Below, piece after piece: positions 17,022 through 52,689 of a stretch of 64,000 nt of DNA (within the stretch, counting starts at the first letter, position 1; each line of letters starts with the position of its first letter). Under the pieces are notes generated by a model that worked only from the letters and a program-made list of their open reading frames with translations, did not search any database and was not told where the DNA came from. Location: NCBI GenBank assembly GCA_045631485.1, contig JAZQUU010000022.1:11298-75297 (forward strand). Reading direction: 5' to 3'. Both the position numbers and the translations under genes were made by a program. The stretch is from Clostridia bacterium (GTDB taxonomy: Bacteria > Bacillota > Clostridia > UMGS1840).

Positions 17022-18767
17022 TTATAAGCCTTCTTTCAATTCCTTAATTTTTGCAAGTAACGCTGCGGACAACTCCGTTTTACGAAGAGGTGTCATCACA
17101 TAAAAACCGTCTGCCACATCATAAACACGGCGAATCATATCCATACTGTATGAAACAGATGCTTCTATTACCTCATCCGCAGACATTTGTTTTAATTGTT
17201 CGATAAAAGCCAAAGGTATCTCAATTCCCGAAACCTCGTTATTTAAAAACAGTGCATTTTTCCAGCCTGCAATGGGTAAAATTCCCGCCAAAATATAGCA
17301 ATCAAGTTTCTCTTTGGCAAGGCGGTAATTTTCGGCTGCCTGTTTTGAGAAAATCGGTTGGGTGAAAAGCACCTTGGCTCCCGATTTGATTTTGGTTTTG
17401 GCACGGTTAAGCTCCGTGTCAAAATGCAGAGCATTCACATTTAAAGCACCGCAAACCGTGTAAGGATTCTCGGTAAAAACTTCCTGATTCAGATTGGAAA
17501 TCAAGTTAATCAATGTATAAGAATTAAACTGAAAAACGCCGCCGTCGCTACGGGAAATCGGGTCTCCCGTTACCACAAGCACATTATTCACCTGCTCAAT
17601 ATTGGCACCGATCAAAAGCCCTCTCATAGCAATATAATTTTTATCTCGGCAACAAAGGTGCGGCAACACCTCAATTCCCACTTCACGCTTGATTTTTGCA
17701 GCAAGCATCAAACTGTCTGCACGTGTACGAGCCAAAGGAGAATCTGCCACGGTAATCAAATGCGCACCGGATTGTTTCATTGTGCGGGAAGCTTCCATAA
17801 TAAAAGACACATCTGTATCCACGGGCGGGTCAATTTCCACGGCAAGCACCTTTTCCCCGCTTTCCAAAAGCTCCAGAAAACGATTTTTCTGCATCACTTT
17901 TTCGCTCTGCACAGAAACAGATACCGCTTCCGCATCGGGAATTTGTCCTTTTATCACTTCCTCCAGATGAATCGGTGTTGTACCGCAACAACCGCCAAGC
18001 ACACAAACGCCCAAAGATGCGATTGCCAAAAGTTTTTCACTGTAATAGGAAATATTATTGGAATACACCGTTCTTCCGTTCACCGCATGAGGATATCCTG
18101 CATTGGGCATCGCAGAAAATGAGGGGAACTCCGAAAGATTCAGTTGACTGATTAAGCGGTACAGATGAGCAGGCCCGCATTGACAGTTCAATCCAACAAT
18201 ATCCGCATCATACGATGCTTCTTTTAACAGATTTTTATAAAAATATCCTTTTTTGGTGTAACCGTCCTGAGAAACGCTGAACGACACCAAAACGGTTGCC
18301 TCGGGTTCTTTTTGGCGAAGGTATGAAATCACCGAGCCTAACACACCGTAATCCTGCAGCGTTTCAAACAGAAAGTTTTTAGCCCCCAAAGACAGGAACA
18401 CATCCACATTTCTGCGGTACTGCTCCTCACTGTCTTGCGCATCGATATAACCGATATCGCAAAACACTTTCACATCGGTATTCTTAGCGGCATCGCAGGC
18501 AATTCGGTAACCCTCTGCCAGGATTTCTGCAATTTTTTCATCATCTGCCAGAGAAGAATTCGCACCAAAGGTGTTTGTTTTGATGGCATTTACTCCCACA
18601 CGAATATATTCCCCGTGAATCTCGGATACACGCTCGGGATAACCGATATTGGCAAATTCACAAGGTTCGTCGGTTTGATATCGTTCGGAATAATAGGTTC
18701 CGAATGCACCGTCAAAATAAAAGGGTTTCTTCACAATGGCTTCCTTTCGGGAATTAAATTCCTTCAT
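17022..18767 (-). CDS. Bifunctional homocysteine S-methyltransferase / methylenetetrahydrofolate reductase (YitJ-like)
   Basis: 581 aa. The N-terminal Hcy-binding domain carries GLNCQCGP and GGCCGTTP Zn-Cys motifs. The C-terminal half is MetF-like. The start overlaps the ftsK stop by 14 nt. Confidence 0.8.
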   Translation of the reverse strand: MKEFNSRKEAIVKKPFYFDGAFGTYYSERYQTDEPCEFANIGYPERVSEIHGEYIRVGVNAIKTNTFGANSSLADDEKIAEILAEGYRIACDAAKNTDVKVFCDIGYIDAQDSEEQYRRNVDVFLSLGAKNFLFETLQDYGVLGSVISYLRQKEPEATVLVSFSVSQDGYTKKGYFYKNLLKEASYDADIVGLNCQCGPAHLYRLISQLNLSEFPSFSAMPNAGYPHAVNGRTVYSNNISYYSEKLLAIASLGVCVLGGCCGTTPIHLEEVIKGQIPDAEAVSVSVQSEKVMQKNRFLELLESGEKVLAVEIDPPVDTDVSFIMEASRTMKQSGAHLITVADSPLARTRADSLMLAAKIKREVGIEVLPHLCCRDKNYIAMRGLLIGANIEQVNNVLVVTGDPISRSDGGVFQFNSYTLINLISNLNQEVFTENPYTVCGALNVNALHFDTELNRAKTKIKSGAKVLFTQPIFSKQAAENYRLAKEKLDCYILAGILPIAGWKNALFLNNEVSGIEIPLAFIEQLKQMSADEVIEASVSYSMDMIRRVYDVADGFYVMTPLRKTELSAALLAKIKELKEGL

Positions 18768-21111
18768 TTAATTTCATTTCGTAATACTGTTCTTTGGTCA
18801 TCAGAACCTGTCTGGGTTTACTGCCCTCGGAGGGTCCCACAATGCCTCGTTCCTCCATCTGATCCACAATTCGTGCGGCTCTGGAATAACCAAGCTTGAA
18901 CCGACGCTGCAGTTTGGAAACAGAGGCTTCACCGAGTTCCACCACAAATTCAATACATTCAGGCAACATCTGGTCTGCATCGCCACCGTCCGCAGCGGGA
19001 GCGTGAGAATCTTTTGCACCGGCAGTTTCGATATGAGAAATCACATCGTCATCATAAGTAACTTCGGTGTTCTGCTTTAAGAAATCAACAATCTGTTCCA
19101 CTTCTTTATCGGTGATTAACGCACCCTGCACACGAATGGGTTTGGATTCTCCGATGGGAGCATAAAGCATATCCCCTTTTCCCAAAAGCTTTTCCGCACC
19201 GCCCATATCCAGAATGGTTCTGGAGTCAATCTGAGAGGATACCGCAAATGCAATTCTGGAAGGCATATTTGCTTTAATCAGACCGGTGATAACGTCAACA
19301 GAAGGACGCTGAGTTGCAATAATCAAATGCATTCCTGCCGCTCTGGCAAGCTGAGCAAGACGACAGATATATTCTTCCACTTCTTTGGGAGATGCCATCA
19401 TTAAATCGGCAAGCTCGTCCACAATGATAACGATTTTGGGAAGGGGATTTTCTCCGTTTGCCACCTGATGCTCATTATAGCTATCCAAATCACGAACATT
19501 TGCTTTTTCAAATAAGTTATAACGGTTAAGCATTTCCATAACCGCCCAGTTTAAAGCACCTGCCGCTTTTCTGGGGTCGGTTACAACGGGAATCAAAAGA
19601 TGAGGAATGCCGTTATAAACAGATAATTCCACCACTTTGGGGTCAATCATAATCATTTTTACTTCTTCGGGACTTGCTTTATACAAGATTGAAGTAATCA
19701 AGGAGTTAATGCACACACTCTTACCGGAACCGGTAGCCCCTGCAATCAAACAATGGGGCATTTTTGCAATGTCCCCAACCACAGTAGTACCTGCAATATC
19801 TTTCCCAACTGCAAAAGACACTTTGGATTTATGCTCCATAAATTCGGGGGATGCGATTACATCTCTTACAAACACGGGCATAACCTTCTGATTGGCAATT
19901 TCCACGCCGATAACCGTTTTTCCCGGAACGGGAGCAATACGAATACCTTTTGCCGCCATACGAAGAGCAATATCTTCGCTGAGTCCCAGAATTTTGGAGA
20001 TTTTAACTCCCACCTGAGGACGAATTTCATATCGGGTAACGGAAGGCCCTTCCTGAACGCTGACAACCTCTGCTTCCACGCCGAATTCCCGCAATGTGGT
20101 CACCAAACGGATTGCGTTTTCATTTAATTCTTCTTTGGATAACCCGGTGGGACGATTCACGCCCTTGTTTAAGAAATCTAAGGAAGGATAAATATATTCT
20201 TTCACTTCCTGCTCTTTTGCTTCGTTTAATTCCTGAGCAACCGATTCAATTTCCTGATTGCTGAGAGCCGGTTTTTTGTCGGCTTCCGCCTGCTTCGCAG
20301 GCTCCGGAGTGATTTCGGGAGCTTTCATCTGATCCTCAGGGGATGCAAATTTTTCGATAATCACATCTGCAGTTTCGGGCATTTCCATCTTGATGGGAAC
20401 ATCCAAAGTGATTTTTTCAATCTCTTTTTGAATCACGTCTGTGGAACGAACGGTATCCGCTTTTACGCCGGGCACACGGAACACTTTAGAGGTTTTTTCC
20501 TGACGAAAGTTTTTGCTGATCCAGGTGAAAATTTTGGTAAAAGCAACTGCAACAATCTCGTTGAACATGATAAACAAGCAGAAAAGCATTGCCAAAACAA
20601 CAAAGATATATGCTCCCACATTTCCCAAAATACTGCGGAAAAGAGAACCCAGATAAGTGCCGAACAGACCGCCGTTTAACCCGGTCTGTGCACCGGTAAC
20701 AATTTCTCCCCAATTGCTTAAGGAGAGGCCGGATACGCTAAGATTGCAAAGCACGTGGATTCCCATAGAAATAACGGGCATCAACACAAATGCGGTGATA
20801 ATTTTGCCGAATCCTTCTCCCGTTTTCAAGTGAATACATCCCAACACCACAATATACACGGTGATGAGCGGAATATAGTAAGCACCTTCGCCGAACAATG
20901 CGCAAAGGAGCCATTTGAACACATAACCGAGACCGCCTGCAACCGTGGTATATACGCTTAAGAACATATATATGAGAATTGCAACTGCACATAAAAGTTT
21001 AATCACAAAAGATACCTGGGGGTCCAGTTTTATTTTTTTAGACTTCTTATTCGGTGCAATCCGTGATACACGTTTTGCAGATTTTGATGTCTTTTTTTTC
21101 TTGATTGCCAT
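18754..21111 (-). CDS. ftsK: DNA translocase FtsK/SpoIIIE
   Basis: N-terminal TM segments, Walker A AGATGSGKS, and a C-terminal gamma wHTH (LQRRFKLGYSRAARIVDQME). Start placed at MAIKKKK (21111), which follows a GAAAGGA SD and clears the upstream uppP stop. Confidence 0.9.
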   Translation of the reverse strand: MAIKKKKTSKSAKRVSRIAPNKKSKKIKLDPQVSFVIKLLCAVAILIYMFLSVYTTVAGGLGYVFKWLLCALFGEGAYYIPLITVYIVVLGCIHLKTGEGFGKIITAFVLMPVISMGIHVLCNLSVSGLSLSNWGEIVTGAQTGLNGGLFGTYLGSLFRSILGNVGAYIFVVLAMLFCLFIMFNEIVAVAFTKIFTWISKNFRQEKTSKVFRVPGVKADTVRSTDVIQKEIEKITLDVPIKMEMPETADVIIEKFASPEDQMKAPEITPEPAKQAEADKKPALSNQEIESVAQELNEAKEQEVKEYIYPSLDFLNKGVNRPTGLSKEELNENAIRLVTTLREFGVEAEVVSVQEGPSVTRYEIRPQVGVKISKILGLSEDIALRMAAKGIRIAPVPGKTVIGVEIANQKVMPVFVRDVIASPEFMEHKSKVSFAVGKDIAGTTVVGDIAKMPHCLIAGATGSGKSVCINSLITSILYKASPEEVKMIMIDPKVVELSVYNGIPHLLIPVVTDPRKAAGALNWAVMEMLNRYNLFEKANVRDLDSYNEHQVANGENPLPKIVIIVDELADLMMASPKEVEEYICRLAQLARAAGMHLIIATQRPSVDVITGLIKANMPSRIAFAVSSQIDSRTILDMGGAEKLLGKGDMLYAPIGESKPIRVQGALITDKEVEQIVDFLKQNTEVTYDDDVISHIETAGAKDSHAPAADGGDADQMLPECIEFVVELGEASVSKLQRRFKLGYSRAARIVDQMEERGIVGPSEGSKPRQVLMTKEQYYEMKLNEGI

Positions 21112-21128
21112 AAGAAATATAATCCTTT

Positions 21129-22055
21129 CTATCCTCTCAGTTGAATCATCAGAATGATAATGCTCAGTAAAAAGCAGTAAATACCAAATCGTTTGCAATA
21201 GTTTCTGCGAACGGCCTTACGCATCAGGGAAATGGACACAACACCGCTGATAAACGCCGCCAACATTCCCAAAAGATACGGGAACCAGTTCATCATAATA
21301 CCATCCTGCAACACGGTAACCGTTTGCAGAATAATCTTTACTATCAACACGGGAATCGCGGATAAAAACGCATATTTCACCGCAAAATCTTTGCGGAAGT
21401 CTGCGAACAATCCCCCCAGTATTGTTAGGGCACATCGGGAAACACCGGGAATAATTGATGCCAACTGAAATGCACCGACAATGGCGCCTTTTTTCATGTC
21501 CTCAAAAGGCTTGCTGTCATCTTTGGGCGGAAGCATCGCCACTCGTTTTCTTCCCAAAGGCATCTCTTCTCCCGATTCGGTTTGTTCCGAATTTAAAACC
21601 TTCTTTTTGGTGCCGACCATATCAATCAGAATATCGGCAATCCCAGTGAGCAGCAAGGTGAATGCAATTACGGAAAGTCTGGAAAGATAGGTTTCCAGAA
21701 GCCCCATCAAAAACACCGCAGGAATCAAAAATGCGGTAGTTACCGCCAACATATAAAGAAGACGACGGTAAGAACGTTCGGTATGTATGGAAAACTGTTT
21801 GTGAAAGATTTCTTTCACGCAACATACCAGTTCCTGCCATAAGCGTTTGATATCCGACAAAAACACAAACAAGATGGCAAACAAGGTGCCTAAGCGAAGC
21901 AGAATATCAAAGGTCAGAGTGGGAGAAAAAAGCTCCACTCCGAATACAGTCTGATTAAAATTCTGTATCATTGCATGGTGACCGCCACCCGAAATGGGCA
22001 AAAACTCGGTGGCACCCTGCACAATACCGAAAAACAGGGCTACTAAAAGCTCCAT
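21129..22055 (-). CDS. uppP: Undecaprenyl-diphosphate phosphatase
   Basis: ATEFLPISGGGH and PGVSRCA motifs in a polytopic 308-aa ORF. It carries a charged loop (TKKKVLNSEQTESGEEMPLGRKR...) that seems longer than I recall for this family. Confidence 0.85.
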   Translation of the reverse strand: MELLVALFFGIVQGATEFLPISGGGHHAMIQNFNQTVFGVELFSPTLTFDILLRLGTLFAILFVFLSDIKRLWQELVCCVKEIFHKQFSIHTERSYRRLLYMLAVTTAFLIPAVFLMGLLETYLSRLSVIAFTLLLTGIADILIDMVGTKKKVLNSEQTESGEEMPLGRKRVAMLPPKDDSKPFEDMKKGAIVGAFQLASIIPGVSRCALTILGGLFADFRKDFAVKYAFLSAIPVLIVKIILQTVTVLQDGIMMNWFPYLLGMLAAFISGVVSISLMRKAVRRNYCKRFGIYCFLLSIIILMIQLRG

Positions 22056-23705: not shown

Positions 23706-23764
23706 GGCGTGGGACAAAAAAGGTCGCTCGTTTTCATAACAATCAAAAAAACGAGGTGTTTTTT

Positions 23765-24454
23765 ATGAAAATATGTATTGATGCAGGTCACAACGATTCC
23801 GGATGGGATACAGGCGCATCGGCAAACAATTTAAGAGAACAGGATGTGAACCATAAAATTGCCACTCACCTGAAAAATCAATTGGAGCGCTACGGCATCC
23901 GAGTGGTAATGACCAGAGAAAAACAAACACAAAACTTAGGCACTTCTCTAAACGGCAGTTTGAAAAAACGTGCCGAAATTTCCAACCGTGAACAATGCGA
24001 TTATTTCGTGTCTGTTCATTGCAATGCAGGTGGCGGAACGGGATGTGAAGTGTTGGTTTTAAAAAAAGGAGCTCAGGCAGAAAAGTTGGCAACTGCCGTG
24101 CTTTCGGAACTGACAAAGAAACTTCCCCTCCGTTCCCGCGGTGTGAAAGAGGCAAATCTCTTGGTCTTACGGGAAACCGATTGCCCCGCAATCCTGGTGG
24201 AAACAGCTTTTTTGGATCATCCGTCCGAAGCTTTGCTTTTACGCTCAAAGCAGGAAGAATTCGCATCGGCGATTGCCGCAGGGATTTTGCAGTTTTTAAA
24301 CATCACACCCACAGATGAAATATCCGCAATCAAACAAAAGCTTTCCGCAAAGTGGAAGCTTTCCGACGCCGAGGCGGTATTTTCGTTACTGGACCAACAT
24401 CCCTATCGCAAAGGCCTGTATGAAAAACTGTTAAAAAGCTATGAAAAGGAGTAA
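23765..24454 (+). CDS. N-acetylmuramoyl-L-alanine amidase (Amidase_3 type), no signal peptide
   Basis: Carries IDAGHN, VSVHCNAG and ETAFLD zinc/catalytic motifs. Start placed at the ATG at 23765, 6 nt after a GAGGTG SD. The ORF-track start at 23756 is a GTG inside that SD. Confidence 0.85.
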   Translation: MKICIDAGHNDSGWDTGASANNLREQDVNHKIATHLKNQLERYGIRVVMTREKQTQNLGTSLNGSLKKRAEISNREQCDYFVSVHCNAGGGTGCEVLVLKKGAQAEKLATAVLSELTKKLPLRSRGVKEANLLVLRETDCPAILVETAFLDHPSEALLLRSKQEEFASAIAAGILQFLNITPTDEISAIKQKLSAKWKLSDAEAVFSLLDQHPYRKGLYEKLLKSYEKE

Positions 24455-26219: not shown

Positions 26220-26801
26220 ATGGGATATGTGATTTCGTTTTTTTGGATATGGGGAATTATATTTCTGGCAATCAACCAAAATTTGGGAGAATTGGCTAAC
26301 ATCATTACCAATGCCGCCGAAAGCTGCGGCACATTTGTGATAAAGCTATTGTTTTTAACCGCCTTTTTCTCGGGAATGATAAAAATTGCAGAAGAAATCG
26401 GATTGACAAAATTGTTATCGAAGATGTTGTCCCCCGTTCTGAAAAAATTGTTTCAAACAAACAACCAAAAGGCCTTGCAAAAAATGTCTGTGAATATTTC
26501 GGCAAATATGCTTGGCATCGGAAATGCGGCAACCCCATCCGGTCTTTTGGCGATGGAGGAGCTTGATAAAGAAGCCAAAGGCGGTGTTCCCTCTCCAGAT
26601 ATGTGCCGCTTTATTCTGTTTAACACCTGTTCGGTGCAACTGATTCCCACCACGGTAATCGGTCTTCGGGCAATGGCAGGGTCAAAATCACCCTCCTCGG
26701 TGGTGATACCCGTTCTGATAACGGGATTTTTGGGATTGGCTTGTGCCTTACTGTTATGCAAATTGGCTCTGTCTGTTAAGAAACGGAGGGAGCAAAGATG
26801 A
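26220..26801 (+). CDS. spmA: Spore maturation protein A (nucleoside-recognition domain)
   Basis: 193-aa membrane ORF with ...GMIKIAEEIGL... and NISANMLGIGNAATP motifs typical of SpmA. Overlaps spmB by 4 nt. Confidence 0.8.
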   Translation: MGYVISFFWIWGIIFLAINQNLGELANIITNAAESCGTFVIKLLFLTAFFSGMIKIAEEIGLTKLLSKMLSPVLKKLFQTNNQKALQKMSVNISANMLGIGNAATPSGLLAMEELDKEAKGGVPSPDMCRFILFNTCSVQLIPTTVIGLRAMAGSKSPSSVVIPVLITGFLGLACALLLCKLALSVKKRREQR

Positions 26802-27328
26802 TTTCTGCATTATCAAACGGTGCACTCCCTTTATTTTTTCTTACCTTGTTTGTCGTCGCTTTGCTAAGAAAAAAGGACTCCCTTTCCGCATTCACAATGG
26901 GTGCCAAAGAGGGATTTTCCGCAATTGCCAAAATCACACCCAACATTCTTGCGATTATGGTGTCTATCGCCGTTTTCAGAGAATCGGGAGCCTTAGATTT
27001 CTGTTTAACATTACTTTCTCCGCTCTTTCGCGCCTTTAAAATCCCGGAAGGAATCGGTGAGCTGATTCTGGTGCGTCCCATTTCGGGAAGCGGTGCTATG
27101 GTGCTCTTATCCGATATTTTTAAAAAATTCGGAGCAGACAGTTATGAGGGGCTTTTGGCATCGGTGATTTGTGCATCCACAGAAACCACGATTTATACCG
27201 TCACCGTTTACTTTGCCGTAACCCGTGTGAAACAAACAAAACTCCCCTTACTGCTTGGATTATGTGCAGATATTTTGGTCATTTTTCTTGCTATGCTGAC
27301 GGTCAATCTGTTTCTCTGCCCTGCTTGA
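26798..27328 (+). CDS. spmB: Spore maturation protein B
   Basis: 176-aa membrane ORF with the RPISGSGA motif, paired with spmA. Confidence 0.8.
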   Translation: MISALSNGALPLFFLTLFVVALLRKKDSLSAFTMGAKEGFSAIAKITPNILAIMVSIAVFRESGALDFCLTLLSPLFRAFKIPEGIGELILVRPISGSGAMVLLSDIFKKFGADSYEGLLASVICASTETTIYTVTVYFAVTRVKQTKLPLLLGLCADILVIFLAMLTVNLFLCPA

Positions 27329-45498: not shown

Positions 45499-45594
45499 AT
45501 AAAAAAACCTCCATATTACTAATCTGCAAAAAGTATAACACAGTTTGCAAAAAAAGTCAACCAAATATACCAACTAAAACAATCAGACAGGGTT

Positions 45595-45624
45595 GTCATA
45601 CTTTGGGACATCCCCGCATATCGT
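45595..45624 (+). promoter_or_regulatory. Sigma-E-like promoter of the spoIIIA operon
   Basis: GTCATACT, 14 nt, CATATCGT. Matches the recalled consensus GkCATATT-14-CATACAnT at most positions. Lies about 25 nt upstream of the SD-supported start. Confidence 0.45.
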
Positions 45625-45649
45625 GATAAAAAACGAGGTGAACCAACCG

Positions 45650-46531
45650 ATGCAACAAGCAATGTCTCAAAACAAAGCAGAGCTTCACAAGCTTCTTCCG
45701 CCTCATCTTATGCAGTATTTCACTTCCGAAACAGAGGAAATCCGATTCAGAAGAAACTGTCCTGTTATTTTTCTGGAGTATGCACGGGAAATTATCACGC
45801 CCTATCAATTCGACTCCCATCAAATGGAAGACTTGGTTGACCGCCTGACAGAAGGTTCCCTTACCTCCTGCTTTGAATCTGTCAACAACGGCTACCTCAC
45901 CATAAAAGGCGGACATCGTGCAGGTCTTTCGGGAACTGCCGTATATGAAGGAAATCAGTTGACATACATGAGAGATATTTCTTCTGTCAACTTAAGAATT
46001 GCAAAGGAAATAAACGGGGTGGCAGACACCTTATTTCAAAGGGTGGGGCTGCTTGACCCGTTGCCCGGAATTTTAATCATTTCCCCTCCGGGGCACGGAA
46101 AAACAACCCTTCTGCGGGATTTTATCCGTCAACTTTCAGAAAAACGAACAGGTCTTCGGATTTGCGTGATAGACGAACGGAGCGAGATTGCCGCAACCTA
46201 CCGGGGAGAAATGCAAAATCATTTGGGAATCCGTTGCGATATTTTAAACCGATACCAAAAACCTGACGGAATCCGTTCGGCAATCAGAAGTCTTTCTCCC
46301 AATGTAATTGCCGTGGACGAAATCGGAACTAAAGAAGATGAAACCAATCTGCTCTACGCCTGCCGCGCAGGGGTTTCCGTGATTGCAACCATACACGGCG
46401 ATTGCACGGGACAATTTCGAAAAAACATCAGGAAGCTCACAAAGGAACAAGTATTTTCTTATGAAGTGTATGTATCAAAAAACGGCTCCCACGACCGTAT
46501 CGCACAAATCAAAAAGGTAAACGGTGAATGA
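45650..46531 (+). CDS. spoIIIAA: Stage III sporulation protein AA (ATPase)
   Basis: Walker A SPPGHGKTT, Walker B-like VIAVDEIG, and first position in the eight-gene operon. Start placed at the ATG 9 nt after a GAGGTG SD. Confidence 0.88.
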   Translation: MQQAMSQNKAELHKLLPPHLMQYFTSETEEIRFRRNCPVIFLEYAREIITPYQFDSHQMEDLVDRLTEGSLTSCFESVNNGYLTIKGGHRAGLSGTAVYEGNQLTYMRDISSVNLRIAKEINGVADTLFQRVGLLDPLPGILIISPPGHGKTTLLRDFIRQLSEKRTGLRICVIDERSEIAATYRGEMQNHLGIRCDILNRYQKPDGIRSAIRSLSPNVIAVDEIGTKEDETNLLYACRAGVSVIATIHGDCTGQFRKNIRKLTKEQVFSYEVYVSKNGSHDRIAQIKKVNGE

Positions 46532-47027
46532 TATGACAAAACTGTATGGCCTGATATTGCTGGCATCAGGCGCTTCTCTTCTGGTTGGACATCTTACCGA
46601 ACGAAAAAAACACCGGATACAATGTCTGCAGGAAATGATTGGATTTTTAAGCGGTGTGACCTACGGAATTACCGAGTGGAAGCAAACACTTGAAAAAGCA
46701 ATTCTGCAAGAAAAACACCCCGGTGTCTTCCCCGCTCTGTTTCAAAAAAAGTTTTCGGAATTAAACAAAGCACTTCCCCTGCGGGACGCTCTGTGCCAAG
46801 CCCTGGAAGAACTCCCTCTTCTAACCCCTGTAAAGGAGGCTTTATCCCGCTATTTCACGGTAGTGGGTAAAGATACAAAAAAAACAACCGAAGAACACTA
46901 CTATCACACCAAACGCCAACTGGAAGAATCCTTAATCCTGCTTCAAAACGAGCTTCCCAAAACAAAAAAACTGATTGCCGTAAGTGTGTATGCCACTTGT
47001 GCTATGGCAGCAGTTTTACTACTGTGA
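46524..47027 (+). CDS. spoIIIAB: Stage III sporulation protein AB
   Basis: 167 aa with N- and C-terminal TM segments. Operon position and size fit. Confidence 0.8.
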   Translation: MNDMTKLYGLILLASGASLLVGHLTERKKHRIQCLQEMIGFLSGVTYGITEWKQTLEKAILQEKHPGVFPALFQKKFSELNKALPLRDALCQALEELPLLTPVKEALSRYFTVVGKDTKKTTEEHYYHTKRQLEESLILLQNELPKTKKLIAVSVYATCAMAAVLLL

Positions 47028-47038
47028 GAGGATATCAA

Positions 47039-47233
47039 ATGAATGTTGAACTGATTTTTAAAATTGCGGCAATCGGAATCATTGTTGCCATCTTAAACCA
47101 ACTGTTGTCCAAATCGGGACGGGATGAACAAGCAACTATGGTCACCCTGGCAGGTTTGGTAGTGGTATTGATTGTGATTGTGCAGGAAATTGCCTACTTA
47201 TTTGAAACGATCAAAAGTTTATTCGGATTTTAA
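47039..47233 (+). CDS. spoIIIAC: Stage III sporulation protein AC
   Basis: 64 aa: MNVELIFKIAAIGIIVAILNQLLSKSGRDEQATMVTLAGLVVVL..., a typical AC sequence. Confidence 0.88.
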   Translation: MNVELIFKIAAIGIIVAILNQLLSKSGRDEQATMVTLAGLVVVLIVIVQEIAYLFETIKSLFGF

Positions 47234-47244
47234 AGGAGAACAAA

Positions 47245-47634
47245 ATGGATACGGTTGCCAAATTAACGGGAATTGCTTTTGCGGGTGCTGTTTCGGCGGT
47301 GTTTTTACGGGAAAAATCACCTCAGTTTTCCATGATGATTACTCTGGTAACAGCAATTGTGATATTTTCTCTGATTTTCGGGGAACTGACAAGCATCATA
47401 AAAACGCTGACCGACTACATGGATGCAGCCGGATTGGAATCGGATTCTGTTGCCACAATCCTTCGGATTTTAGGAATCGGAATCGGTGCCGAATATTTTT
47501 GCAATGTGATTGCGGATGCAGGAGAAAATGCCATTGCAAAGAAAATGGAATTTGCCGCCAAGGTGTTGATTCTGATGCTTCTTCTCCCCTTAATCGGAAA
47601 GGTTGTGGATACGGTATGGTCCCTGTTTGGATAA
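47245..47634 (+). CDS. spoIIIAD: Stage III sporulation protein AD
   Basis: 129-aa membrane protein with a typical AD sequence (KLTGIAFAGAV...ILRILGIGIGAEY). Confidence 0.88.
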   Translation: MDTVAKLTGIAFAGAVSAVFLREKSPQFSMMITLVTAIVIFSLIFGELTSIIKTLTDYMDAAGLESDSVATILRILGIGIGAEYFCNVIADAGENAIAKKMEFAAKVLILMLLLPLIGKVVDTVWSLFG

Positions 47635-48629
47635 AAAAAATGATTGTAACGGGACTTGCTTGTCTGCTTTTTGCAGGTTGTCCCCCGAATGTTCAGGCGG
47701 AAGCAACGCAGGAAATCGGCTTTTCTTTCGAATCAATTATAACTACCATTGCAGACTCCCTTTGGGAAGAATTTGTTCTGTTAAAGGAAAGCATTGCTCC
47801 CATCCTGATTTTTATGATACTCATCGGAATCAAAAACTGTATGGAGTTCCCCATCAGCTTAAACCGAACGGTGCACCTTGGTGTTTTTTGTGCCCTGGCA
47901 CTTTGTTCGGGAGAATTGTTTCGGGAACTGGCAAGTGTGGCAGAAGAATGTATCCGTAACCTTTCGGAATTTGTGTACCTGACCATCCCAACCCTGACGG
48001 CACTGATTGCCAACGGCGGAAGAGTGCTGAGCGCCGCCAAATCCACCTATTTTATTCTCGGATTTATGAGCCTGCTGGTATATCTGATTCAAAACATCTT
48101 TTTTCCCGGAATCCTGATTTATTTTATGTGTGCAATTTTGTCTCCGCTATTAGAGAAAGACTATTTTAGTGCCTTAAAAAAGTCGATTCTGTGGGCAGTA
48201 AAAACTGCACTTCCCATCATCATAGGCATCTTTATGATGGTGTTTACCTTGCTTACCACCGTGACAAAAGCGTCGGATTCTTTCACCTTGCAATCTGCCA
48301 AAATGGCGTTGGGAACCTGTATTCCGTTTTTAGGGGGAACCTTAAGCGATTCCGGTGAATATCTGATTGAAGCAATCAGTCAAATTAAAGCAAAAGCAGG
48401 TCTTACCGGCGCCATCGGCATTTCCTATCTGTTGTTGTCTCCTCTGGTAAAATTAACGGCAGGACTTCTGACATTTCAGGGATTATCGGTCTGCTCCGGA
48501 TTTCTTTCCGACCAAAAGACAACTCATTTTCTGGAAGACACCGCCACCGGCTTAGGGATGCTTACCGGAGTGGTGGCAACTGTTTCGGTCATTGCAATTC
48601 TCGGCATTATGATTTTAATGGGAATTTAG
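47616..48629 (+). CDS. spoIIIAE: Stage III sporulation protein AE
   Basis: Signal-like N-terminus (MIVTGLACLLFAGC) followed by a polytopic domain. The start is the ATG at 47616 or 47640. The ORF-track extension back to 47178 is out-of-frame overlap with AC/AD. Confidence 0.85.
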   Translation: MVPVWIKKMIVTGLACLLFAGCPPNVQAEATQEIGFSFESIITTIADSLWEEFVLLKESIAPILIFMILIGIKNCMEFPISLNRTVHLGVFCALALCSGELFRELASVAEECIRNLSEFVYLTIPTLTALIANGGRVLSAAKSTYFILGFMSLLVYLIQNIFFPGILIYFMCAILSPLLEKDYFSALKKSILWAVKTALPIIIGIFMMVFTLLTTVTKASDSFTLQSAKMALGTCIPFLGGTLSDSGEYLIEAISQIKAKAGLTGAIGISYLLLSPLVKLTAGLLTFQGLSVCSGFLSDQKTTHFLEDTATGLGMLTGVVATVSVIAILGIMILMGI

Positions 48630-48640
48630 GAGGAGGCAAT

Positions 48641-49081
48641 ATGATGGCAGAATGGATTGATCATTTGAAACAGGTAGTGATAATTGTATTGGTCTGTGAA
48701 TTTTTAAAAGAACTGTTATCCACCTCTTCTTTTCGAAAATATGTGCAATTTGCCGTCAGTTTGTTTCTGTTTTTCTTCTTATTTTCTTCTCTGTTCCGCC
48801 TGGATTTTTCGTTTTCGTTACCTGATATTTCCATCGCAGAAAACGAGTCGGAAAACCTTTTGGTTCCCGAATATGAAGCCCGCATTTCCGAAAGAATTCA
48901 TCAGGAATTATCCCAAAATAACCTATCTGTGCAAAATGTGACGGTAAAACTCAGTGACCAATACGAAATTAAATCAGTCACCATATTTTCCAAAGATGAT
49001 CCCGAAAAAATTAAAGCTACATTGAAAGGAGATTTTTCGTGTGAAGTGGTTCCTCCCGATGAAGAAATTTTGGACAGATAG
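48641..49081 (+). CDS. spoIIIAF: Stage III sporulation protein AF
   Basis: 146 aa with two N-terminal TM segments. Operon position fits. Confidence 0.75.
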   Translation: MMAEWIDHLKQVVIIVLVCEFLKELLSTSSFRKYVQFAVSLFLFFFLFSSLFRLDFSFSLPDISIAENESENLLVPEYEARISERIHQELSQNNLSVQNVTVKLSDQYEIKSVTIFSKDDPEKIKATLKGDFSCEVVPPDEEILDR

Positions 49082-49571
49082 TCCCAAAAAGCAAAAACTA
49101 AAACTCATCGTGATGCTTTTGATTCTCGGATTCGTGCTGCTTATGTTTCCAACCTCCGAAAAGAAAGCATCAAATCCGCCCAAGCAGAATATGATAAATG
49201 AACAGAGCATACCCCAAAGAGAGCTGGAATCTCTGCTGACAGACCTGACAGGAAACAAAGTAAAAGTTTTAATTGCCTATGCCGATTCGGGAAAGGTGGA
49301 TATCGTCAGAGAAGAAAGTATCACCACAGACACCACATTGGAAAAAACCGAGCAGAAAAAAGATGAAAAGCCCGTATTGGATGCCAACAAAAATATTCAG
49401 ATTCAAAATCAACTAAAGCCCCGTATCAAAGGCGTTTGCATCTTTTATTTCGGACCTTATCAAAAGGAAACCGAAGAGATGCTCTATCGTGCGGCAAAAG
49501 GAGCTCTGGGGGCAGATTTACACACCGTGGAGGTGATTTTTAAACCCAACCAAACCAATCCAAAACCATAA
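49041..49571 (+). CDS. spoIIIAG: Stage III sporulation protein AG
   Basis: 176 aa with an N-terminal TM segment and a ring-building-motif-like C-domain (IKGVCIFYFG...AAKGALGADLHTVEV). Confidence 0.8.
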   Translation: MKWFLPMKKFWTDSPKKQKLKLIVMLLILGFVLLMFPTSEKKASNPPKQNMINEQSIPQRELESLLTDLTGNKVKVLIAYADSGKVDIVREESITTDTTLEKTEQKKDEKPVLDANKNIQIQNQLKPRIKGVCIFYFGPYQKETEEMLYRAAKGALGADLHTVEVIFKPNQTNPKP

Positions 49572-49589
49572 TAAGAAAGGAAAATAAGC

Positions 49590-50096
49590 ATGATTTTATT
49601 ACACAAACGAAAAATTGCAGCGGTGGTTTGTACCGCACTTTTGGCAACTGCAGGGGTTGTAAACTATATCAACCACACCGAGCCGCAGGCAGTTTCCCTC
49701 TCCATTCCTCCTGCAAGCGAAAGCTACGAAGAAGAAACCTCCTACGGAGAGGCAAAATATGTTTCCACGGATTTATCGATGGAAAAAGAGAGAAGCGAGG
49801 CTGTTTCCCTCTTGCAAACAGTATCCGAGGACCAAAATGCTTCCCCCGAAAAAAAGGCAGAAGCGCAGGACGAAATTATCCGTATTGCCAAGGATATGGA
49901 AAAAGAAACTCTTGCAGAACGGATTTTAACCGAAAAAGGATTCCAAAATGTGCACGTGTTTTTAAGTTCTCCCGACGCCACCGTCAGTGTGCAATCTGAT
50001 GGATTATCTCAGCAGGAAATCGCACAGATTCGGGATACTATGAAAAACGAAGCGGATATTGAGCCGAAAAATTTAAAAATCATTGAAACAAAGTAA
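49590..50096 (+). CDS. spoIIIAH: Stage III sporulation protein AH
   Basis: 168 aa with an N-terminal TM segment and a charged, YscJ/FliF-like C-domain. Last canonical gene of the operon. Confidence 0.75.
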   Translation: MILLHKRKIAAVVCTALLATAGVVNYINHTEPQAVSLSIPPASESYEEETSYGEAKYVSTDLSMEKERSEAVSLLQTVSEDQNASPEKKAEAQDEIIRIAKDMEKETLAERILTEKGFQNVHVFLSSPDATVSVQSDGLSQQEIAQIRDTMKNEADIEPKNLKIIETK

Positions 50097-50192
50097 ATAA
50101 AAACCGGAAAAAAATCTGACCTTGCCAAACGCCTGTGATGTTTGCTATTCTTTGGTTGAGTAGTGTCAACAAAGAAAATTTGAGGTGATAAA

Positions 50193-50444
50193 ATGACTCT
50201 TACCAAAGAAGAAAAAGAAAAATACGAGGGCTACAACCGTGCCTATAATCTTTACAGTCCCAATCATACAGACTCCAACAACCAATTTCTGAAGGAAAAA
50301 CAAAAGGCAGAGGAAGCTAAAAAGAAACGTCAGCAAAAGCTTCTGGAAAGATTAGGAAAAATGAAACAATCTGCCGTAAAACGCGGTATGTACGGTCAGA
50401 AACCCTATCAGGCAAAAGTAACCGAGGAAACATCCAATGGTTGA
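50193..50444 (+). CDS. Hypothetical 83-aa Lys/Glu-rich protein, translationally coupled to the portal-like gene
   Basis: GAGGTG SD 5 nt upstream. Its stop (TGA at 50442-50444) overlaps the next ATG in ATGGTTGA. Confidence 0.55.
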   Translation: MTLTKEEKEKYEGYNRAYNLYSPNHTDSNNQFLKEKQKAEEAKKKRQQKLLERLGKMKQSAVKRGMYGQKPYQAKVTEETSNG

Positions 50445-52302
50445 GAATCTTGCTCTGTTTGTATGTCATGAATTTAACGACAGAAAAGAAAAGCGAAGTC
50501 CGTTGGAATTAAAATGGAATTTAAACATCAATTTCGTAAACGGAAATCAGTATTGCGATGTGGATTACAACGGCAGAAAAATTTATTCCGTGGAAAAACT
50601 GTATGACTATCAGGAACGAGCAGTTTACAATAACATTGCTCCCATTATGGAAACAAGAGTGGCTAAGCTTTCGGGAGTGGTTCCCCAAATCGGAGCCGCT
50701 ACGGACAGTTCCGATTTAAATGATATTGCCAATGCCAAAATCTCCACGGCGGTGTTAAATACGGTTTCCAAACAATTAAACTTTCCCGAAAAGATTGCCG
50801 GTGCCGTTGCCATTTCCGAAATGCTCGGCACCGCATTCTACAAAACAGTATGGCAAAAGGACCAGGGAGATTTTTTGTATCTTAACAACAGTGAACCTAT
50901 CAAGGCAGGCGAGGTTGACACCGTGGTGGTAAGTCCCTACGAAATTTATCCGGAAAGTCTTTATGTTGAGCATATCAATGAACAACGAAGCATTATTCAC
51001 GCGCATCCTTATCACATTGATGAAATCAAAGAACAATGGGGACAAGAATTAAAAGGACACCCCGTGAATTTATTTTCTATGACCAACGTGACCAATGTAA
51101 CGGGTGGACTTGGATGGACAGGCAGCTTAGAAAGCGTGGGACAAGAAGTGAAAGACGGCTACGATATTGTGTTGGAATACTATGAAAAGCCAACCAAAAA
51201 GTATCCCGACGGCAGACTTCTGATTGTGGCATACTATAATCAGGAGTTGCTCTACGAAGGTCCTCTTCCCTACTTAAATGCCAAATATCACACCAGGGGG
51301 TACCCTTTTGTAAAGCAAGTTTCCGTATCACGACCGGGTTGTTTTTTCGGGTCAAGTATCATTGAGCGTTTGATTCCGATTCAAAGAGATTATAACGCCA
51401 TTCAGAACCGTATTAACGAATATTTAAACCGTGCCGCCCTGGGAATCCCCGTGATTGAAGATGGCAGCGTGGATGTGGACAGTCTGGAATACTACGGAAT
51501 GCCTCCGGGAATGCCCATTGTGTACCTACGAGGCAGTGAGCCGCCCCGATTTATGGACACGCCCGCCCTGCCGTACAGTTTTTTATCCAAGCAGGATCGA
51601 CTGGAAGAAGCCTTTGTTTCCATTTCGGGCATTTCAGAACTGTCCCGATATTCTTCCGCTCCGTCCAATGTGACATCGGGAACCGCACTTTCCATTTTGT
51701 CCCAACAAGATGACAACCGTCTTGCTGTCAGTGCGGAAAACATCCGAAATGCCGTGCTGGAAGTGGCAAAACAATGGCTGCGATTGTATCGTCAGTTTGC
51801 ATTATTTGAAAGAATGCTTCATTTAGGCGGTGATGATACCGATAACGCCCTGATTCGTTGGTGTAACACCAATCTGCTCCCCGAACAGTTGGAGTTAACC
51901 ACTCAAAATGAAATCGAAAATTCACTGATGGTCAAACGGGAACTAATCCGCGAGCTCTACACAATGGGACTGTTTACCGACCCGAAAACAGGAAAAATCA
52001 CCCCGTCGGCAAAATCCAAAATTTTATCTATGCTGAAAATGGGAGACTGGGAAAATAAGATGGAAACCGAAACACTTCACGCAACCAGAGCCGCTCGTGA
52101 AAACTTAAAAATGAGAGAAAAACTCGTCTGCCCCGTCAGAGCAAGAGACGAACACGAACTCCATATTGAGGAACACACCAAATATCTGATGACCTCTGAA
52201 TTTGAAGAGTTGGAATCCAAAGATCCCGATCTTACAAAGATTTGGGAAGAGCATCTTTTAAAGCACGAAGAATATCTTATAAAAAACACGGAAAAATTAT
52301 GA
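50437..52302 (+). CDS. Phage portal-like protein (621 aa), orphan
   Basis: GAGGA SD 8 nt upstream. N-terminal W.LN..F..GNQY motif. Central GSSIIERLIPIQRDYNAIQNRINEY. Also SNVTSGTALSILSQQDDNRLAVSAENIRNA. These segments parallel the wing/stem/clip motifs of the portal proteins I recall. Confidence 0.6.
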   Translation: MVENLALFVCHEFNDRKEKRSPLELKWNLNINFVNGNQYCDVDYNGRKIYSVEKLYDYQERAVYNNIAPIMETRVAKLSGVVPQIGAATDSSDLNDIANAKISTAVLNTVSKQLNFPEKIAGAVAISEMLGTAFYKTVWQKDQGDFLYLNNSEPIKAGEVDTVVVSPYEIYPESLYVEHINEQRSIIHAHPYHIDEIKEQWGQELKGHPVNLFSMTNVTNVTGGLGWTGSLESVGQEVKDGYDIVLEYYEKPTKKYPDGRLLIVAYYNQELLYEGPLPYLNAKYHTRGYPFVKQVSVSRPGCFFGSSIIERLIPIQRDYNAIQNRINEYLNRAALGIPVIEDGSVDVDSLEYYGMPPGMPIVYLRGSEPPRFMDTPALPYSFLSKQDRLEEAFVSISGISELSRYSSAPSNVTSGTALSILSQQDDNRLAVSAENIRNAVLEVAKQWLRLYRQFALFERMLHLGGDDTDNALIRWCNTNLLPEQLELTTQNEIENSLMVKRELIRELYTMGLFTDPKTGKITPSAKSKILSMLKMGDWENKMETETLHATRAARENLKMREKLVCPVRARDEHELHIEEHTKYLMTSEFEELESKDPDLTKIWEEHLLKHEEYLIKNTEKL

Positions 52303-52304
52303 TA

Positions 52305-52344
52305 AAAAGTATATTTTTTAAGAATTCGGAATATACTTTTTATT
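52305..52344 (+). terminator. Weak AT-rich intrinsic terminator after the portal-like gene
   Basis: AAAAGTATATT, 14-nt loop, AATATACTTTT, then TATT. Confidence 0.4.
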
Positions 52345-52374: not shown

Positions 52375-52602
52375 ATGGAAAACTTACTGAAAAAAATTGC
52401 AGCATTATTTCAAAAGCCGGAGGAAAATCCCTCCTATGATGCACTGATGGAGGCAAAGCAGGAGGTTGCGATTGCCTGGAATAAATTCAACGAGGTAACC
52501 CGTGATGAATATATTGATATTGCCATTATGAATTTAAACCTGGCAAAAAAACGGTTGGATGTTGCCATCAAAGAATCCAAAGAAGCCGCCTCTGTTTCCT
52601 AA
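52375..52602 (+). CDS. DUF2508 (YaaL-like) small protein
   Basis: 75 aa. The pattern ...AKQEVAIAWNKFNEVTRDEYIDIAIMNLNLAKKRLDVAIKESK resembles the DUF2508 consensus as I recall it. Confidence 0.55.
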   Translation: MENLLKKIAALFQKPEENPSYDALMEAKQEVAIAWNKFNEVTRDEYIDIAIMNLNLAKKRLDVAIKESKEAASVS

Positions 52603-52640
52603 GCTATTTCTATCTGATTGTTTTTAAATCCTCTCTTAAG

Positions 52641-52679
52641 AAAAAAGGAACTGCATCCCGATGGAGCAGTTCCTTTTTT
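52641..52679. terminator. Bidirectional intrinsic terminator
   Basis: AAAAAA-GGAACTGC-11-nt loop-GCAGTTCC-TTTTTT between convergent genes. Confidence 0.75.
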
Positions 52680-52689
52680 CTTATGCATC

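Follow-up and report, generated by a model that had tools for sequence, protein, structure and literature searches.

The window analysed here, a stretch of 64,000 nucleotides (nt) from contig JAZQUU010000022.1 of a Clostridia bacterium (assembly GCA_045631485.1), carries directly behind its spoIIIA sporulation operon a gene for a podovirus-type phage portal protein of 621 amino acids (aa), with no other phage gene nearby. Now a resident of the chromosome, the gene is under strong purifying selection and evolves more slowly than the adjoining sporulation genes. Exaptation of this portal gene is very probable; when exaptation is taken jointly with the expression architecture described below, the balance still tips in favour of the combined reading. 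The locus runs from spoIIIAA–AH through a 96-nt gap, a small open reading frame (ORF) termed p83, the 621-aa ORF, a 72-nt gap and a second small ORF termed p75 to a convergent mgtC gene.

45650..50096, + strand: spoIIIAA–AH operon (SpoIIIAH by a Pfam match in the window; the families Spore_III_AA, AB, AC, AD, AE and AH by Pfam calls on syntenic loci)
50193..50444, + strand: p83, a Lys/Glu-rich 83-aa ORFan coupled to the portal gene
50437..52302, + strand: orphan podovirus-type portal, 621 aa (assigned by profile matches, fold, conservation and monophyly)
52375..52602, + strand: p75, a divergent DUF2508/YaaL-family protein of 75 aa

An earlier note made from the letters of this DNA had described p83 and the 621-aa ORF as translationally coupled, each with its own Shine–Dalgarno site, and this description holds. 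The two ORFs overlap by 8 nt (ATGGTTGA), an overlap that is kept in every ortholog; an invariant GAGGTGA lies upstream of p83, and GAGGAA is found 8 nt 5′ of the portal ATG.

Analysis of the 621-aa protein with profile hidden Markov models (HMMs) revealed matches to the Pfam families P22_portal (PF16510; 50.3 bits, cutoff 26.1) and SU10_portal (PF23899; 32.2 bits, cutoff 30), and to PHROG 156, "portal protein", over residues 24–471 (E = 3.4e-26). A profile of its own family matches the GP4 phage portal in the PDB (8jov, E = 5e-6). An AlphaFold2 model built from a 65-sequence alignment (predicted local distance difference test, pLDDT, 78; predicted template modelling score, pTM, 0.72) was compared with the PDB using Foldseek, and the top 50 matches were all tailed-phage portals (best E 7.5e-15, template modelling score ~0.5–0.6). 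Nearly all of these are podoviral, namely SU10, Pan3, Pa223, N4, GP4, T7 and P22, with SU10 7z44, Pan3 9vyf, Pa223 9nwm, N4 9lbz and GP4 8jov as the solved comparison portals. By Pfam, PHROG, AlphaFold2 and Foldseek, the ORF is therefore a full-length podovirus-type portal whose likeness to its phage counterparts is far beyond chance, and the portal-like reading in the earlier note is borne out by both profile and fold.

The DSSP pattern of the model, combined with canonical portal topology, places a stem and clip at approximately residues 308–397 (stem helix 308–335), a long wing helix at ~415–454 and a helical crown at the C terminus; the sequence blocks that had been singled out by eye would correspond to the stem helix (308–335) and the long wing helix (415–454). 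Among its phage relatives, 143 positions are conserved at 85% or more; the orphan protein retains 117 of them and shows no large indels or deletions. Conservation reaches 93–98% in residues 301–400, which span the stem and clip, and it is this region of phage portals that makes subunit–subunit and partner-protein contacts. Phage portals assemble as dodecameric rings. Since the whole architecture and most family-invariant residues are kept, with the stem and clip conserved to this degree, the orphan protein in all likelihood still forms a soluble ring in the cytoplasm. In the crown, His 576, 580, 606 and 610 form two HxxxH motifs (window ~52162–52266) that are invariant in all 65 aligned phage and orphan portals and may constitute a metal site.

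The portal has no companion phage genes at this locus, as the earlier note had found by inspection. A tblastn search with all ORFs of three phage-type loci matched nothing in the window except the portal, and Pfam, applied to some two thirds of the large ORFs between 1 and 41 kb (leaving out roughly ten ORFs recognised by eye), returned housekeeping families only. The families identified at 41–64 kb, by Pfam on syntenic contigs, are AraC, Maf, spoIIIA, MgtC, NAPRTase, RmuC, Alr, a radical-SAM enzyme, a GidA-family (TrmFO-like) protein and TopA. Neither an integrase nor any other phage gene was found near the portal in the window scans and syntenic-locus Pfam calls, and no defence island lies near the locus. 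The same holds across the clade: among 87 loci with adequate flanks, which include ~260 kb of flanks from 13 orphan loci, neither a terminase (TerL) nor a major capsid (MCP) gene was present in any of the 13 orphan-clade loci, and 70 of the 74 phage-type relatives carry both, the other four carry MCP only, and none lacks both. The orphan state is thus specific to this portal clade.

Related podovirus-type portals at 36–45% identity are common both in metagenomes from gut and anaerobic digesters and in prophages of Clostridia, and the metagenome scan yielded phage-type relatives only, among the matches listed. Many of these related phages carry an ORF of 57–106 aa that overlaps the portal start by 4–11 nt, which indicates that the coupled layout of a small ORF and a portal is native to phages. 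In the phage-type module L014 (3540–13385), a promoter, a Zn-ribbon small ORF and the portal are followed by genes for a major head protein, an internal virion protein, a tail-fibre-like protein, an endolysin and a holin; the module directly abuts host genes on its upstream side, and no terminase was detected in it. The loci L043, L137 and L177 are likewise phage-type without a detected terminase, and a Maliibacterium cluster (L002 7830–18660), flanked by host genes, occupies only ~11 kb. All of these compact clusters of structural and lysis genes (L014, L043, L137, L177 and L002) may be degenerate or domesticated elements themselves.

Such clusters bear on a rival explanation, in which the orphan portal belongs to a split phage-like particle, for instance a gene transfer agent or a killer particle, whose remaining head, tail and packaging genes lie elsewhere in the genome, and is conserved together with the whole particle. 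A break after the portal in an L014-like module, where head, tail and lysis genes follow the portal without a terminase, would give the orphan arrangement. The three further terminase-less loci and the small Maliibacterium cluster fit this explanation, as does slow vertical evolution under purifying selection, which is typical of domesticated particles of the RcGTA type. However, no capsid or terminase homolog was found in the 64-kb window or the ~260 kb of flanks, and known domesticated particles have their portal inside the head gene cluster. A split particle is therefore quite unlikely, albeit worth keeping in view.

Intact orthologs of the portal are found at the same position in at least 13 loci, which represent about a dozen species-level lineages at 64–91% identity. 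A search of 5.8 billion proteins gave 18 clusters at 66–91% identity; beyond an identity gap, the next portal relatives are hundreds of phage and prophage proteins at ~45–38%. Nine species-representative metagenome-assembled genomes ("Clostridia bacterium" from deer, buffalo and other hosts) and further contigs share the portal synteny. In the deeper lineages L013, L099 and L101, where the portal is 66–67% identical, spoIIIAH, a small overlapping ORF, the portal and the DUF2508 gene are retained and the outer flanks differ. The p83–portal unit persists in L009, L013 and L101 although the downstream flank is rearranged there (in L101 both flanks are), and the order spoIIIAH, small ORF, portal, DUF2508 gene is conserved across the orphan clade. 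In an ortholog comparison across loci, identity to the window portal was 75–91%; the ranges for neighbouring proteins were as follows.

SpoIIIAA: 51–70% identity to the window protein
SpoIIIAB: 29–58% identity to the window protein
SpoIIIAE: 44–64% identity to the window protein
SpoIIIAG: 46–66% identity to the window protein
Alr: 73–87% identity to the window protein
NAPRTase: 90–96% identity to the window protein

The portal ORF is uninterrupted in every locus (614–624 aa). Its nonsynonymous divergence (dN, Nei–Gojobori) is 0.06–0.18 and its ratio to synonymous divergence (dN/dS) is ~0.04–0.10, values that are approximate because dS is saturated (>1) in all comparisons, and which point to purifying selection. 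The ratio is comparable to those of RmuC, MgtC and Alr, and portal dN is 3–4 times lower than that of SpoIIIAA and SpoIIIAE. The composition of the gene is also host-like: GC content matches that of the host, GC at third codon positions is 0.455, and the codon-usage cosine to neighbouring genes is 0.946. The by-eye judgement that codon usage does not set the gene apart is thus confirmed; the gene is fully ameliorated.

These data decide the question of decay. A neutral prophage remnant that has yet to erode could explain why the portal is the sole phage gene at the locus, which resembles a deletion scar, yet the ORFs are intact everywhere across synonymous-saturated divergence, dN/dS is ~0.04–0.10, and the portal is better conserved than its SpoIIIA neighbours. 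Promoter, ribosome-binding site and ORF overlap are all conserved, the gene has ameliorated to host composition, and no integrase or phage debris surrounds it. A decaying remnant was accordingly rejected, and a neutral one is effectively refuted, with only the slimmest chance of being correct. Of the two possibilities raised in the earlier note, the data strongly favour an orphan, domesticated portal, as is further supported by the monophyly of its intact orthologs and the 117 of 143 retained positions.

A neighbour-joining tree of 138 portals places all 23 orphan sequences in a monophyletic group that encloses no phage sequence. Their sister is the phage-type cluster L014/P0019 at 45% identity, and no viral contig exceeded 45% identity to the orphan portal. 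The insertion site, like the 8-nt overlap, is common to all orphan loci. Two portal-less relatives, L100 and L102, were found via SpoIIIAH, and in both a p75 homolog directly follows spoIIIAH: an 82-aa ORF in L100 that is 43–52% identical to p75 depending on the alignment method, and a 74-aa ORF in L102 that scores 25.2 bits on DUF2508 (cutoff 22.5). In L100, the sequence GTATAAT-14-AATATAAT lies 7 nt after the spoIIIAH stop, and the same motif precedes p75 in the orphan loci. The gene order in both relatives and the promoter motif in L100 indicate that the ancestral order was spoIIIAH, a sigmaE-type promoter and a DUF2508 gene, and that one insert of ~2.2 kb, comprising a promoter, p83 and the portal, landed between the spoIIIAH stop and the DUF2508 promoter. 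The capture dates to the common ancestor of the carriers, which are uncultured Clostridia of the herbivore gut. Given the portal-less relatives, the position of the portal beside spoIIIA is therefore explained by one insertion that was inherited vertically.

It follows from this order that p75 predates the portal at the spoIIIAH site. The earlier note called the 75-aa ORF DUF2508/YaaL-like; the family assignment stands, through transitive profile homology only, and the window protein itself falls below the Pfam cutoff. It has no PF10704 match at E ≤ 1, and just one of the 23 clade members touches PF10704 (E = 0.0026). A full HMMER profile search with p75 found only 20 relatives among 1.84 billion representatives, and its profile reaches P0157 (E = 2.9e-10) and P0160; these two, together with P0161, P0166, P0171 and the L102 ortholog, exceed the cutoff for Pfam DUF2508 (PF10704). 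The AlphaFold2 model of p75 is all-alpha (helices 2–13 and 21–74, pLDDT 83), and its dN/dS is 0.01–0.11. The idea that p75 is a phage gene was discarded: it lacks a counterpart in phages, and as a native DUF2508 gene it already adjoined spoIIIAH before the portal arrived. Members of this DUF2508/YaaL subfamily directly follow spoIIIAH in the portal-less L100 (6508–6830) and L102 (6628–6900), with a putative sigmaE-type promoter in L100, which suggests that YaaL paralogs adjoining spoIIIAH may have an undescribed mother-cell role. B. subtilis YaaL is a two-helix protein that AlphaFold-Multimer predicts to bind at the oligomerisation interface of Mbl (PMC13321084). The window protein is likewise small and all-helical and belongs to the same family by profile homology; it differs in being a divergent paralog located after spoIIIAH with a predicted sigmaE-type promoter. 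By analogy, p75 could also modulate an assembling protein.

The other small protein, p83, arrived with the portal and is its obvious candidate partner. It is fast-evolving (dN 0.21–0.56), and the family alignment shows a conserved core at the C terminus, LL..L...KkSAiKRGMynQ. No homologs were found in Pfam, PHROG, NCBIfam or PADLOC, the last giving just a sub-threshold match (E = 0.014). A phage origin for p83 was tried and rejected. The ORFs that precede the portal in phages form three unrelated families (a Zn-ribbon, a ~100-aa helical protein and a small membrane protein), to none of which p83 shows similarity by hhalign or hmmsearch, and a six-frame search of all phage loci, including terminase C termini, revealed no p83 relative. 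The lineage L013 (2386–2517) encodes a 43-aa internal-deletion variant that keeps the N-terminal MATYKERMENL and the C-terminal SAIKRGvYNQ, and its sister contig L101 carries a full form of 92 aa; therefore, only the C-terminal ~30 residues of p83 seem to be needed.

The noncoding sequence around these genes contains the following predicted elements.

45596..45624, + strand: sigmaE-type promoter of the spoIIIA operon, TCATACT-14-CATATCGT (read from the sequence; used as an internal reference)
50122..50151, + strand: extended −10 sigmaA-type promoter of p83 and the portal, TTGCCA-18-TGcTATTCT (consensus scan, footprint alignment A1)
50158..50164, + strand: GAGTAGT motif, 6–7 nt after the p83 −10 element (invariant columns of alignment A1)
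52309..52337, + strand: native sigmaE-type promoter of the DUF2508 gene, GTATATT-14-AATATACT (invariant in alignment A2)
52621..52640, + strand: block TTTTTAAATCCTCTCTTAAG in the 3′ untranslated region of p75, anti-Shine–Dalgarno-like (invariant in A2)
52640..52680, both directions: bidirectional intrinsic terminator, AAAAAAGGAACTGC...GCAGTTCCTTTTTT, common to the p75 and mgtC transcripts (conserved in A2)

The earlier note saw no convincing sigmaA promoter after spoIIIAH, which proved to be wrong. The predicted extended −10 promoter, an A-tract followed by TTGnnA, a spacer of 17–18 nt and TGnTAnnnT, is conserved in all 13 orphan loci that cover the gap, and in L013 and L101 too. It is absent from the portal-less L100 and L102. 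Seen only where the insert is present, this predicted promoter is part of the inserted segment, and the portal should be transcribed from it. Alternative assignments to sigmaE, K, F, G or H were considered, and none fits these elements by eye. The GAGTAGT motif behind the promoter, which has the variants GGGTAGTG and GGGCAGTG in the deep lineages L101 and L013, probably marks the transcription-start region or may be an operator.

The reference for sigmaE is the promoter upstream of spoIIIAA. The motif [TG]hATAnn-14-[CA]ATAnnnT occurs in 11 of the 13 related loci that cover this region, and the window promoter fits the C. difficile mother-cell consensus, with ATA at −35 and a CATATAAT-like −10 (PMC3789822). 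The promoter proposed for p75, G[T/A]ATAww-14-AATATAmT, was found in 15 of 15 orphan loci examined and in the portal-less L100. It is probably sigmaE-type, since its architecture equals that of the spoIIIAA promoter and the spoIIIAA −10 of L101 also begins with A, while from sequence alone a forespore sigma is possible. Both arms of an inverted repeat after the portal stop are invariant here, with spacing fixed at 14 nt. A terminator or other hairpin was rejected as an explanation of this repeat: in L007 and L008 a C-to-A change breaks the stem with no compensating change, which indicates that it is the sequence of the motif, not a hairpin, that is conserved.

The earlier note saw no intrinsic terminator in the 96-nt gap after spoIIIAH, and indeed the spoIIIAH–p83 gap holds no terminator-like site on the + strand. 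The first + strand terminator after spoIIIAA is the one at 52640–52680, for which hairpins of −12 to −18 kcal/mol with a T-run behind them are predicted across loci. Because no terminator stands between spoIIIAA and the end of p75, sigmaE-dependent read-through from spoIIIA into p83 and the portal is plausible. The adjacent TTTTTAAATCCTCTCTTAAG block is invariant in the main clade, including L009, which has no downstream mgtC; L100 and the deep lineages do not have it. The data do not support pairing of this block with the p75 ribosome-binding site, as the minimum-free-energy partners are inconsistent and the duplexes weak (−4 to −7 kcal/mol).

Some neighbouring gene calls need correction. The true spoIIIAA start, read from the sequence, is the ATG at 45650, downstream of GAGGTGA, and not the TTG at 45593; the mechanical ORF call is over-extended at 45593–45650, and the sigmaE-type promoter sits within this apparent 5′ extension. 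The spoIIIAE call is also over-extended (window 47178–47620; 483 aa versus ~323–361 aa in relatives). Elsewhere, the window encodes further proteins with links to sporulation or to the handling of chromosomes: an FtsK/SpoIIIE translocase (18754–21198), an Amidase_3 protein (CwlD-like; 23756–24454) and two adjacent nucleoside-recognition "Gate" proteins (SpmA/SpmB-like; 26220–27328). An Rfam search returned only one tRNA, distant from the locus.

The captured segment thus placed p83 and the portal, along with a dedicated extended −10 promoter of the sigmaA type, between spoIIIAH and the DUF2508 gene. In the model proposed for its working, the portal would assemble as a soluble cytoplasmic ring, with p83 made in fixed proportion to it through the 8-nt overlap. 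Transcription would come from two sources, the sigmaA-type promoter during growth and read-through from the sigmaE-dependent spoIIIA promoter, the second of which would put the portal ring in the mother cell during engulfment as well. A host role for this soluble ring in the cytoplasm of the sporulating mother cell is our leading guess, a tentative one that we hold well short of conviction.

The earlier note went further and suggested that a domesticated portal co-expressed with the SpoIIIA–SpoIIQ machine would be a new component or a new exaptation; in the strong form of this idea, the portal ring would be stacked with those of SpoIIIAG and SpoIIIAH as a structural part of the channel. Domestication stands; the synteny does not support a tie to the machine, although co-expression is plausible. 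The gene lies on the same strand as spoIIIAH and adjoins it with no terminator between, and the linkage to spoIIIA survives rearrangement of the flanks, but a single insertion explains the position and the gene has a sigmaA-type promoter of its own. All endospore formers possess the channel, whereas the portal is confined to one small clade with portal-less relatives (L100 and L102), and L100 may have lost it. Maximal Kyte–Doolittle values in a 19-residue window are 1.13 for the portal, −0.52 for p83 and 0.77 for p75, compared with 2.02 for SpoIIIAH and 2.46 for SpoIIIAG. No hydrophobic or membrane segment was found in p83, the portal or p75, and the portal has no signal peptide. The intermembrane space would thus be out of its reach, which excludes a place in the SpoIIIAG/AH–SpoIIQ ring stack and makes a structural role in the channel very unlikely. 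What remains of this proposal is docking at the cytoplasmic face. Phage portals dock packaging ATPases; by analogy, the ring might dock at the cytoplasmic base of SpoIIIA near the SpoIIIAA ATPase, or nucleate another mother-cell assembly, with p83 and possibly the DUF2508 protein as adaptors, a version of the mother-cell role that we consider decidedly improbable.

Anti-phage interference was weighed as a further alternative. A portal look-alike, together with p83, could be built into or nucleate podophage procapsids, or soak up terminase or adaptor, and thereby yield dead-end particles. The abundance of related podovirus-type portals at 36–45% identity in gut, digesters and Clostridia prophages speaks for this reading, although co-assembly is doubtful when identity to any known phage portal is at most 45%. 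Constitutive expression from its own sigmaA-type promoter would suit such a role, and the clip, which is the docking site for terminase and adaptor in phages, is the most conserved part of the protein. The possible loss of the insert in one lineage would fit an accessory gene. Defence genes, however, usually turn over fast with arms-race signatures, in contrast to this gene, which sits at one fixed locus and evolves vertically and slowly under purifying selection; moreover, no PADLOC family matches the portal, p83 or p75 (p83 reaches only the sub-threshold match given above), and there is no defence island nearby. Interference is thus unlikely, if conceivable.

Several points also weigh against the mother-cell role itself, and some against the wider case for a captured, ring-forming portal. 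The link to sporulation rests mainly on position, which a single insertion already explains, and a dedicated sigmaA-type promoter argues for a role beyond sporulation; promoters and read-through alike are sequence inferences. Some phage portals depend on a scaffolding protein for correct assembly, which tempers the expectation of a ring. The orphan status covers the window and the ~260 kb of flanks, and partner genes may lie elsewhere in the carrier genomes, which were outside the search. In addition, 191 of 200 bootstraps of a crude neighbour-joining tree of concatenated SpoIIIA proteins unite the portal-less L100 and the portal-bearing L101; portal-bearing taxa excluding L100 are monophyletic in just 9 of 200, and SpoIIIA identity is 51% between L100 and L101 and 42% between L100 and the window group. 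As the portal has a single origin, this grouping suggests that L100 may have lost the insert secondarily, which would make the insert dispensable. The DUF2508 distances are ambiguous and long-branch effects are possible, and L100 could alternatively have split off just before portal capture.

Comparison with known systems sets the orphan portal apart. It resembles P22/SU10-type phage portals in its HMM matches, its full-length wing, stem, clip and crown order, its 117 of 143 conserved positions and the small ORF that overlaps its start. It differs from them in lying outside a head module, with no terminase, scaffold, capsid or adaptor gene nearby, and in being a vertically inherited, ameliorated chromosomal gene under housekeeping-level constraint, and p83 has no relationship to any of the three protein families encoded upstream of phage portals. 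RcGTA-type agents and PBSX-like defective prophages are also phage structural genes kept by a host, inherited vertically under purifying selection; those elements retain whole head and tail sets, whereas here, as far as can be told from the sequence, a single structural gene and one ORFan are kept. The skin element that interrupts sigK is likewise prophage-derived DNA fixed in a mother-cell sporulation locus of Firmicutes, but it works through an excising recombinase, whereas the present insert encodes a virion structural protein, contains no recombinase and interrupts no gene. Finally, SpoIIIAG and SpoIIIAH–SpoIIQ also form large homo-oligomeric rings encoded at the same locus, but these are anchored in the membrane and intermembrane in location, in contrast to a predicted soluble, cytoplasmic portal of unrelated fold.

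Hosts are well known to have taken over capsid and tail modules of phages, as in encapsulins, tailocins, type VI secretion systems and gene transfer agents. To our knowledge, however, there is no case of a lone portal protein retained as a cellular gene, and searches of the full-text literature yielded neither a description of one nor anything relevant on portals in connection with sporulation or spoIIIA, or on DUF2508. The locus represents a clean natural experiment, with a known empty site, a single insertion, about a dozen constrained species-level lineages and maybe one secondary loss. It also draws attention to a DUF2508/YaaL subfamily beside spoIIIA with a predicted promoter of the mother-cell type. 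If the portal were instead a piece of a split particle or an assembly decoy, it would represent a new layout for either system. If it still forms a ring, these Clostridia would possess a phage-derived cytoplasmic assembly that approaches a megadalton at a sporulation locus, and co-option in the mother cell, if true, would make this the first use of the portal fold by a cell.

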